Origin: Candidatus Cloacimonadales bacterium
GTDB lineage: Bacteria; Cloacimonadota; Cloacimonadia; Cloacimonadales; JAFGVF01
Direction of reading: 5' to 3'
Assembly (NCBI GenBank): GCA_963667035.1
Contig: OY762964.1
Coordinates: forward strand, 2,528,001 to 2,592,000
DNA length: 64,000 nucleotides
This document shows, in pieces, positions 21,436-22,466 of this stretch (the stretch's first letter is position 1; each line of letters opens with the position of its first letter). The notes beneath the pieces are model-generated. The model did not search any database. It saw only the letters and a program-made list of their open reading frames with translations, and was not told where the DNA came from. The translations under genes and the position numbers were made by a program.

Positions 21436-21675
21436 TTAGGTTGTAAAAATAAGAAGAAGTGCAATAACTAATGAATAGATACCGGTTGACTCTGAAACAG
21501 CCTGACCGATAAGCATTGTTCTAGTTATAAGACTGGCATGTTCAGGTGAACGAGCGATACCTTCACAGGCTTTACCTGCAACGAATCCTTCACCGAGTCC
21601 AGGACCAAGAGCTCCGATTCCCATTGCGATACCTGCTCCCAAAAGAGCTGCTGCTTTAGCAATGTATTGTTCCAT
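21436..21675 (-). CDS. atpE: ATP synthase Fo subunit c (single hairpin, Na+-binding signature)
   Basis: PGLGEG inner helix, RSP loop, [10 protein letters not shown] outer helix (E-S-T-x-x-Y). Confidence 0.95.
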
Positions 21676-21716
21676 TTTTACCTCCGTATAGGTTTTTTTA
21701 TTTTTGTTTATCTAAT

Positions 21717-22466
21717 TTATATAAATATTAATAGAAAAGCTACTACAAGAGCATAAATTGCAGTAGATTCCGAGACTGCGGCTCCAAGAAACATTGTTCT
21801 TGTTATGGTAGGACCTTGTTTGGAAAATCTTCCTAACATATCAGTTGATCTTCCTGCCACAAATCCGATTCCGATTCCGGGACCAAATGTCCCGAATCCA
21901 ATAGCAAGAGCAGCACCTATATAACCGCATATTCTCATTACAATATGCCCAGTTGTTACTGCTTCCGGTGTTATTGGTGTAGAATAAAGAAGTAGCAAGG
22001 ATACAACAAGAGCAAAAATAGCATCTGTTTGTGCTAGTGCTTGCCCTATAAGCATTGTTGTAGTTATCCTGTTCTGTTGATCAGGCATTCTTCCTATTGA
22101 GCGACAAGATTGAGCTCCTGTATAGCCCGAGCCAAAACCCGGTCCTATACTACCAAGTCCAATTGCTAATCCGGCTGCCAATAGAGTTCCGAATCTAAAC
22201 CAACCTGCGTCAGGATTATTCAAACCACTAAAAATCAGAAGAAGTGATACAACCAAACCAAATATAGCTCCGGTCTCAGTCACAGCCTGACTAATGAGCA
22301 TTGTTCTTAAAAGACCATCTCCTGCTTTTGGCTGTCTCATTAACGCAAAAGAAGCTTCTCCTGCTGTCTGACCTTCTCCTATACCTGCACTCAATGAGGC
22401 AACACCTGTTGCAACTGCCGCTCCAAGGAATGCTGCAATGTTAAGAATTTCTGATGTTAATACCAT
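21717..22466 (-). CDS. Triplicated (three-hairpin, 6-TM) ATP synthase c subunit
   Basis: Three tandem c repeats with loops RQP, RMP, RFS and outer helices QAVTETGAIF, QALAQTDAIF, AAVSESTAIY. ATG at 22466 after a GGAGAGG RBS. Confidence 0.9.
   Translation of the reverse strand: MVLTSEILNIAAFLGAAVATGVASLSAGIGEGQTAGEASFALMRQPKAGDGLLRTMLISQAVTETGAIFGLVVSLLLIFSGLNNPDAGWFRFGTLLAAGLAIGLGSIGPGFGSGYTGAQSCRSIGRMPDQQNRITTTMLIGQALAQTDAIFALVVSLLLLYSTPITPEAVTTGHIVMRICGYIGAALAIGFGTFGPGIGIGFVAGRSTDMLGRFSKQGPTITRTMFLGAAVSESTAIYALVVAFLLIFI

Follow-up and report, generated by a model that had tools for sequence, protein, structure and literature searches.

A triple-hairpin c subunit encoded beside a canonical Na+-type c subunit in the F-type ATP synthase operon of a Cloacimonadales bacterium: a candidate mixed rotor ring

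The number of ion-carrying sites per turn of the rotor sets the ion-motive force cost of ATP, a quantity that is critical for anaerobes living near the thermodynamic limit. To our knowledge, the Acetobacterium woodii type is the only characterised bacterial hybrid rotor. This F/V-hybrid Na+ rotor, found in A. woodii and Clostridium aceticum (PDB 4BEM), joins a double-hairpin c1, in which the second Glu is replaced by Gln, with the single-hairpin c2/c3; according to the available text of PMC9171764, the A. woodii ring holds nine single-hairpin c subunits and one V-type c1, and ATP synthesis was shown for enzymes with such subunits. F-type rings are described as predominantly made of single hairpins, with A. 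woodii as the named example of a mixed ring, in the available part of a preprint of October 2026 (bioRxiv 10.64898/2026.10.01.756066). The ring of Fusobacterium nucleatum (c11, PDB 3ZK1) is homomeric, with 11 single hairpins and no fused subunit. Fused double hairpins with fewer sites than hairpins occur in V-type enzymes (NtpK of Enterococcus hirae, the eukaryotic subunit c). In the A-type enzyme of Methanocaldococcus jannaschii, the triplicated proteolipid is missing one site. Its triplication is described in the available text of PMC2359735. Here we report on a stretch of 64,000 nucleotides from a Candidatus Cloacimonadales bacterium (assembly GCA_963667035.1, contig OY762964.1, positions 2,528,001 to 2,592,000; hereafter the window, within which positions are counted), in which the gene of a 249-aa protein of three fused c hairpins, called c3 below and not to be confused with the single-hairpin c3 of A. 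woodii, stands next to the gene of a 79-aa single-hairpin c subunit of an F-type ATP synthase.

The c3 gene lies at 21717-22466 and is followed by the c gene at 21436-21675, both on the minus strand. A preliminary description, made from the letters alone, had read these two adjacent genes as components of a mixed Na+ rotor and had expected a profile search to return three hits in one ORF; PF00137 (ATP-synt_C) indeed matched three stretches of the 249-aa protein (E 4.1e-43, 145.9 bits against a cut-off of 24) and one stretch of the 79-aa protein (E 3.5e-18, 66 bits against the same cut-off). The larger ORF in the ORF listing starts at TTG 22490 and has 257 aa. Read from ATG 22466, the protein has 249 aa, as is usual among the relatives (mostly 249-250 aa); in front of this ATG stands TAGGAGAGGAACT, a good ribosome-binding site lying across the stop codon of the preceding gene. 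The c gene carries GGAGG 6 nt before its ATG at 21675, and the A/T-rich spacer between the c3 stop and the c start measures 41 nt; a scan for terminator-like sites, itself a weak one, found none between the two genes.

The operon is complete and in the canonical F-type order, atpZ-I-a-c3-c-b-delta-alpha-gamma-beta-epsilon. The presence of delta (OSCP) makes it F-type and not N-type, and it is likewise not the archaeal A1Ao set of genes (A, B, C, D, E, F, H, I, K). Among the NCBIfam models, the best matches of c3 and c are F-type c models, the N-ATPase c model TIGR03322 stays below its cut-off (126.6 for c3 and 66 for c against 130.85), and the V-type K models are far below theirs (e.g. 65.5 against 211 bits). 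NCBIfam has no model specific to the fused form, and c3 passes the single-hairpin models only by the sum of its three stretches. The genome, a single contig of 3.1 Mb with 98% completeness, holds four PF00137 matches in all, every one of them in c3 and c; thus the operon encodes the only rotary ATPase of the cell.

All residues named in the preliminary description were recovered. Hairpin 1 of c3 (residues 1-84, 22215..22466, minus strand) carries the inner residue E31 and the outer motif VTE64TGAIF, hairpin 2 (residues 85-168, 21963..22214, minus strand) has inner S113 and outer LAQ146TD148AIF and is a silent site, and hairpin 3 (residues 169-249, 21720..21962, minus strand) has inner I200 and outer VSE233STAIY. 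The four hairpins align without gaps: GIGEGQ...VTETGAIF in hairpin 1, GFGSGY...LAQTDAIF in hairpin 2, GIGIGF...VSESTAIY in hairpin 3 and GLGEGF...VSESTGIY in the single c. In the numbering of the I. tartaricus/F. nucleatum c subunit, with the register taken from HMMER alignments to solved chains, hairpins 1, 2, 3 and the single c have E, S, I and E at position 32, E, Q, E and E at position 65, T, T, S and S at position 66, G, D, T and T at position 67, and F, F, Y and Y at position 70, the Asp of hairpin 2 thus standing two residues after its Gln. Chance is far from sufficient to explain this residue pattern, which recurs in 124 genomes. Mutual identity is 35-46% among the four hairpins and 35-40% among the three of c3. 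HMMER pairs Q146 with the Gln found in place of Glu in the second hairpin of A. woodii c1 (4bem_J), and it aligns GEG...ESTGIY of the single c residue for residue with the site of the F. nucleatum c subunit (3zk1_A). The two-carboxylate Na+ site of the F. nucleatum type is therefore full in the single c and partial in c3, where hairpin 1 has E31 and E64 and the Ser, Thr and Tyr must come from a neighbouring hairpin.

An AlphaFold2 model of c3, built on a 60-sequence alignment, has six long helices (pLDDT 95.8, pTM 0.90). Foldseek gave A. woodii c1 (4bem_J) as its best solved match (E 1.2e-07, TM-score 0.80 by target and 0.59 by query), followed by V-type proteolipids (TM-score 0.80-0.83 by target and 0.51-0.53 by query), and no solved chain in this comparison covered all three c3 hairpins. 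A. woodii c1 is the best match of c3 in sequence as well as in fold, and the locus resembles the A. woodii system in several further respects: a multi-hairpin c gene adjoins a single-hairpin c gene in an F-type operon, the Glu of an internal hairpin is replaced by Gln, the hairpin that precedes the dead one has Phe in place of Tyr, the single c has the Na+ motif, and the host is an Rnf-containing anaerobe. It is nevertheless a variant and not a strict member of that type, with three fused hairpins instead of two (the fused subunit there is V-type-like, of about 18 kDa), an extra third hairpin that keeps its Glu with Ile at the inner ligand position, Glu instead of Gln on the inner helix of the single c, and a fused protein whose live sites range from three to none among relatives. 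With F. nucleatum, whose ring is unlike this one in lacking a fused subunit, both the 79-aa c and hairpin 1 share the inner and outer Glu, and the ESTGIY motif of the 79-aa c is identical (site in the available text of PMC3692424). Three fused hairpins in one polypeptide are found in c3 as in the M. jannaschii proteolipid, the latter belonging to an archaeal A-type enzyme and the former to a bacterial F-type operon with delta, b and epsilon; this likeness is one of architecture. Compared with the V-type double hairpins, to which the fold is similar, only two of the three c3 hairpins superpose, and the operon is F-type.

To obtain insight into the distribution of the fused gene, relatives and other genomes of the phylum were searched, and an uninterrupted triple-hairpin gene was found in 33 of 41 relatives and, at E <= 1e-30, in 124 of 232 phylum genomes, closed genomes among them. 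It is absent from one large family (0/98) and two small families (0/2 and 0/1) and present in almost all members of every other Cloacimonadota family; in all five c3-less genomes tested we found one ORF of 166-183 aa with two hairpins, a V/A-type proteolipid. Uninterrupted homologues of 242-257 aa make up 116 of the best 120 protein clusters. That separate c genes were joined by an artefact of assembly or sequencing, the doubt which the preliminary description had itself raised, consequently has a negligible probability, as the gene is uninterrupted in these clusters and genomes, and the c3 hairpins, being only 35-40% identical, are old duplicates and not a collapsed repeat. Contigs from another assembler (two runs of one study) also span 21300-22700 without a difference, with the reservation that the runs are probably from the source sample and are thus not independent.

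The layout of the two genes was surveyed, as the preliminary description had proposed, in 52 loci (12 from the 41 relatives and 40 further), all chosen for holding c3. A single c lies directly downstream of c3 in 49 of them; one of the three exceptions is at a contig end, and unrelated genes follow c3 in the other two (L111 and L124). In L111 (G021:C14) and L124 (G229:C49) the operon is seemingly split after c3, a and c3 being followed by unrelated genes on the opposite strand; the G021 genome carries a single c on another contig. The layout, which the preliminary description could compare with no characterised F-type enzyme, is phylum-wide with four- and five-hairpin relatives elsewhere and, as judged from these gene arrangements, is not unique to this organism. 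ESTGIY is present in 49/49 of the neighbouring single c subunits, with Glu (44) or Gln (5) on the inner helix, and mean pairwise identity is 86.9% for the single c versus 62-64% for each c3 hairpin. The carboxylate patterns of c3 in the 52 loci are EQE in 36, QQE in 6, EQQ in 3, EEE in 3, GQQ in 2, GQE in 1 and QQQ in 1; the carboxylate-free forms are intact and stand beside a canonical c.

The conservation of single residues was read from an alignment of 116 relatives, i.e. the best 120 clusters minus four longer proteins (323-405 aa). The carboxylate position of hairpin 1 holds E in 71, Q in 38 and G in 7 relatives, its inner residue is E in 62, S in 41 and V in 9, and Phe occupies the Tyr position in 115. 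The silent hairpin 2 is the most uniform at the carboxylate position, with Q in 115/116, and has Phe at the Tyr position in 116/116. Hairpin 3 has E in 102 and Q in 14 relatives, inner Ile in 111, and the ligands Ser, Thr and Tyr in 116, 112 and 113, respectively. The Asp that the preliminary description had pointed out two residues after the Gln of hairpin 2 is present in the window but is not a general feature, since 16/116 relatives have Asp and 94/116 have Ser at this position; Asp148 as a general replacement carboxylate for the dead site was accordingly rejected, and the residue is lineage-specific.

In the K-ring of E. hirae, the ligands of a site come from the preceding hairpin. The same follows from the rule given for double hairpins in the available text of the preprint, namely Glu in the second hairpin and the motif [STQ][STQ]xxY in the first (bioRxiv 10.64898/2026.10.01.756066). 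Two neighbouring subunits share each Na+ site of the F. nucleatum ring: one contributes Glu32 and Glu65, the other Ser66 and the carbonyl of Val63. Glu65 is hydrogen-bonded by Tyr70 and Ser66, and a water is bound by Thr67; H+ sites are said to be simpler and for the most part hydrophobic (PMC3692424, available text). The last hairpin of c3 keeps S-T-Y with or without a Glu of its own, and these residues have been lost from hairpin 1, the one ahead of the dead site; this conservation fits donation of the ligands to the site of the next hairpin and not in the opposite direction. Read in this way, the site of hairpin 1 is probably complete, with E31 and E64 and with S-T-Y from the preceding subunit, and the site of hairpin 2 (Q146, S113) is by its residues dead. 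The site of hairpin 3 appears impoverished: E233 has Ile as its inner-helix partner, hairpin 2 offers Phe where a Tyr would be needed, and T147 and, in this lineage, D148 flank the site; being hydrophobic, it would resemble H+ sites and may be effectively silent.

The closest relatives outside Cloacimonadota are four- and five-hairpin proteins with 38-41% identity over nearly the whole of c3, among them a four-hairpin protein of Desulfobacterales (38% identity over 97% of the length). A scan of species genomes with the four-hairpin protein of Desulfococcus found 80 loci; almost all belong to Desulfobacterales, with the cultured Desulfosarcina widdelii PP31 among the sources. At 75 of these loci, a single c with GEG...ESTGIY comes after the four-hairpin gene; of the remaining loci, three have the four-hairpin gene only, one is split and one truncated. 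The carboxylate patterns in the 75 loci are EQQQ (69), EQEE (3) and EQQE (3), and Tyr tracks the Glu of the next hairpin exactly, FYYY occurring with EQEE, FFYY with EQQE and FFFY with EQQQ. The Desulfobacterales proteins thus share with c3 the layout a - fused c - single c, the first Glu, the middle Gln and the last Tyr, and differ in having four hairpins, mostly one Glu, and a different phylum as host. The order in D. widdelii is atpZ-like, atpI, a, c4, c and b-like genes. At this locus (L020, 7394-8481), a - c4 - c is followed by two b-like ORFs of 170 and 192 aa and then by unrelated genes; the F1 genes appear to lie elsewhere, in a split atp operon. In a tree of the hairpins (FastTree, 73 columns, no support values) they group by position, with the terminal ones beside the single c, a reading that is suggestive only.

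The genome encodes two OAD_beta Na+-decarboxylase subunits (C1:1996786-1997841 and 636271-637332), two separate Rnf/Nqr-type membrane-subunit loci (pairs at C1:1922353-1923546 and 1283369-1284535) and one membrane pyrophosphatase. With two Rnf/Nqr-type pairs and two OAD_beta genes, several candidate Na+ pumps feed one ATP synthase. The available text of two surveys of the phylum (PMC12590816; bioRxiv 10.1101/2025.11.11.687785) describes an economy of Rnf and ATP synthase, F-type in one clade and V/A-type in the other, and contains no comment on the c subunits.

On these data we consider it likely, as the preliminary description had proposed, that the enzyme has a heteromeric Na+-coupled ring in which the canonical sites come from several single c subunits, with at least one c3 as a partly ion-blind block. 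A mixed c-ring in which one site or more is silent best accounts for a conserved gene pair with an invariant single c and a c3 that is carboxylate-free in some relatives, and the two precedents invoked in that description, the A. woodii ring of c1 with single c (PMC9171764) and the triplicated M. jannaschii proteolipid (PMC2359735), are borne out by the available text of both papers. In such an enzyme, the 249-aa protein would be a rotor (c-ring) subunit of a Na+-coupled F1Fo ATP synthase and would join several copies of the 79-aa c in one ring. The single c subunits would give canonical two-carboxylate Na+ sites, each site being formed by the Glu and inner residue of one hairpin together with the Ser, Thr, Tyr and backbone carbonyl of the preceding hairpin, and the conserved S-T-Y of hairpin 3 would complete the site of the next subunit. 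The ring would then have fewer ion-carrying positions than hairpins and hence a lower Na+/ATP ratio. Na+ F-type rings characterised up to 2013 all had 11 hairpins (PMC3692424, available text). If the same number applied here, the ring could hold one c3 and eight c, two and five, or three and two, which would give 10, 9 or 8 carboxylates per turn instead of 11 and 9, 7 or 5 canonical Na+ sites; with one c3 and eight c, 9 or 10 ions would be carried per turn instead of 11. With fewer ions per ATP, synthesis would require a greater force, and hydrolysis could build up a larger gradient.

The two proteins could also form separate rings, i.e. a homomeric ring of c3 (for example three or four copies, with 9 or 12 hairpins) and another of the single c, as two alternative rotors with different ion/ATP ratios. 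The c3 of the window has two Glu and could in principle work alone, both genes have strong ribosome-binding sites of their own, and in two relatives c3 stands apart from the rest of the operon. However, c3 remains intact beside a canonical c also where it has no carboxylate (QQQ and GQQ, 3/52) or a single one (QQE, GQE and EQQ, 10/52), and a carboxylate-free c3 cannot turn the motor alone, which argues against the fused protein working by itself. Furthermore, 41 nt separate the two genes and no terminator-like site was seen in this gap, the S-T-Y of hairpin 3 and its loss from hairpin 1 are sensible only if a neighbour receives or supplies ligands, and the one characterised precedent is a mixed ring (PMC9171764, available text), so that we regard unmixed rings as quite improbable. 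Similarly improbable, or slightly more so, is an H+-coupled enzyme in which the Na+-like motifs are relics: the hydrophobic site of hairpin 3 would suit it, H+ sites being mostly hydrophobic (PMC3692424, available text), but the single c is complete for the residues of the F. nucleatum Na+ site, as it is in 49/49 relatives, and the genome encodes Na+-decarboxylase beta subunits and Rnf/Nqr-type complexes.

A further possibility is that c3 stays outside the working ring as an assembly scaffold or nucleator, as a regulator at the interface with subunit a, or as a slowly decaying paralogue. Its evolution, faster than that of c, and the dispensability of its carboxylates would agree with this. Against it stand the intact frame and constant length in the 124 genomes across the phylum, the glycine-rich inner-helix motifs and loop R-x-P, near-invariant when aligned, the confident six-helix model of ring type, and the four-hairpin forms of Desulfobacterales, which obey the same rules; in addition, c3 would have little reason to retain S, T and Y so strictly in its last hairpin if it did not border on a working site. 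We hold a role outside the ring to be unlikely.

A complex prediction of c3 with c gave weak support for the mixed ring, with a median score of 0.56 (best of three controls 0.00). Among solved complexes 116 of 157 attain the mark for such predictions, and among mismatched pairs 2 of 215; only 18 of the 157 attain it with a score of 0.60 or less, as do the two passing mismatches. At least 98% of the contacts are shared between the runs, with a partner pLDDT of at least 84; 4BEM is a solved complex of like kind, and the pass may reflect memory of it. Several observations weigh against the mixed Na+ ring. In L111 and L124, the pair is not adjacent. The c3 hairpins evolve faster than c and have repeatedly gained and lost Glu, which could mean relaxed constraint. 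The direction of ligand donation rests on the methods of one preprint, on conservation patterns and on the precedent of the E. hirae K-ring. Moreover, among 138 diverse multi-hairpin representatives, Tyr in a hairpin is rare both where the next hairpin has a carboxylate (9/170) and where it does not (2/163); the donation rule is thus without strong covariation outside the Cloacimonadota and Desulfobacterales sets. Tyr covariation outside these two groups was dropped as a line of support, the difference between 9/170 and 2/163 being weak.

If the mixed ring is real, a phylum-wide F-type family would widen the known tuning of the ion/ATP ratio. With three hairpins, live sites ranging from three to zero and four- and five-hairpin cousins in Desulfobacterales, cultured strains among them, it would offer a natural series to test how a rotor passes uncharged stretches, and the availability of Desulfosarcina widdelii in culture makes a direct test of the idea possible. 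A bolder scheme, which we think has only a small chance of being right, would give the rotor three kinds of position: canonical two-carboxylate Na+ sites, the ion-blind hairpin 2, and the lone Glu of hairpin 3 in its hydrophobic pocket, which together with Asp148 would carry H+, so that both gradients would be coupled; fused c subunits with between three and five hairpins, in which any number of the carboxylates from all to zero is kept, would then be a widespread gear that evolution can adjust. One revolution would in that case move Na+ and H+ through chemically distinct sites, and Cloacimonadota, Desulfobacterales and similar anaerobes would use such a gear to adjust how much an ATP costs them in ions.

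Full-text literature searches, which left one relevant review unread, found no description of a three-hairpin F-type c subunit. PMC13564433 deals with A-type four-helix subunits only, the available text of PMC13343851 (2026) cites Brandt and Muller 2015 only for multiple atpE copies in Rnf-dependent anaerobes, and the available parts of PMC9324843 and PMC3604715 hold nothing relevant.

Among 1.84 billion cluster representatives, 1418 matches were found at E <= 0.001. In the best 150 of these 1418 matches, which are mostly fused forms, hairpins were counted with our own hairpin hidden Markov model: 1 has one hairpin, 23 have two, 45 three, 73 four and 4 five, and one each has 7, 8, 11 and 15. 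The giant proteolipids P0163 (1139 aa), P0142 (968 aa), P0253 (631 aa) and P0174 (524 aa), with 15, 11, 8 and 7 hairpins, have a Glu in every hairpin and amount to whole or near-whole rings in one polypeptide. P0163 is labelled as Asgard archaea (Promethearchaeota/Hodarchaeota), and the family of the 968-aa protein has 12 members. A four-hairpin family of about 312-321 aa (P0175-P0267) with the pattern E-Q-E-D accounts for 35 of the best 150 and has about 30% identity to c3; a 1.76-Mb contig from an NCBI genome carries one of its members.

All remaining genes of the operon are on the minus strand as well. It begins with a small membrane protein of the ATPase_gene1 (AtpZ/AtpR-like) family at 23886..24167 (PF09527, E 2e-14), followed by AtpI of the assembly factor family at 23501..23878 (PF03899, E 1e-05, 26.3 bits against a cut-off of 25.1) and by subunit a at 22477..23529 (PF00119, E 2.6e-45, residues 151-343 of 350), which has the stator Arg motif SFRLFGN. 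Downstream of the c3 and c genes (the latter, with the two-carboxylate Na+ motif, at 21436..21675) are subunits b at 20912..21388 (PF00430, E 8.9e-23), delta (OSCP) at 20376..20909 (PF00213, E 1.7e-28), alpha at 18855..20360 (PF00006, PF00306 and PF02874), gamma at 17980..18834 (PF00231, E 2.5e-92), beta at 16564..17961 (PF00006 and PF02874) and epsilon at 16182..16571 (PF02823 and PF00401). A promoter-like site lies at 24260-24231 (minus strand) upstream of the ATPase_gene1-family gene, and a terminator-like hairpin with a 10-pair stem and a T-rich tail at 16129..16152 (minus strand), after epsilon, is the likely end of the operon; promoter- and terminator-like sites in the region are no more numerous than in shuffled sequence and are thus weak evidence.

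Subunit a carries an N-terminal extension of about 140 residues before its ATP-synt_A match, with one hydrophobic stretch and a charged region, and its true start is probably ATG 23490 (MSKKKK...). It is also long in relatives (301 aa in L111 and 276 aa in L124), and that of D. widdelii (L020) has 224 aa. The flanking ORFs at 24411-25520 (plus strand) and 15006-15806 (minus strand) match no Pfam family at E <= 0.001. The 369-aa flanking ORF has several CxxC pairs in its N-terminal part and a hydrophobic, multi-helix C-terminal half.

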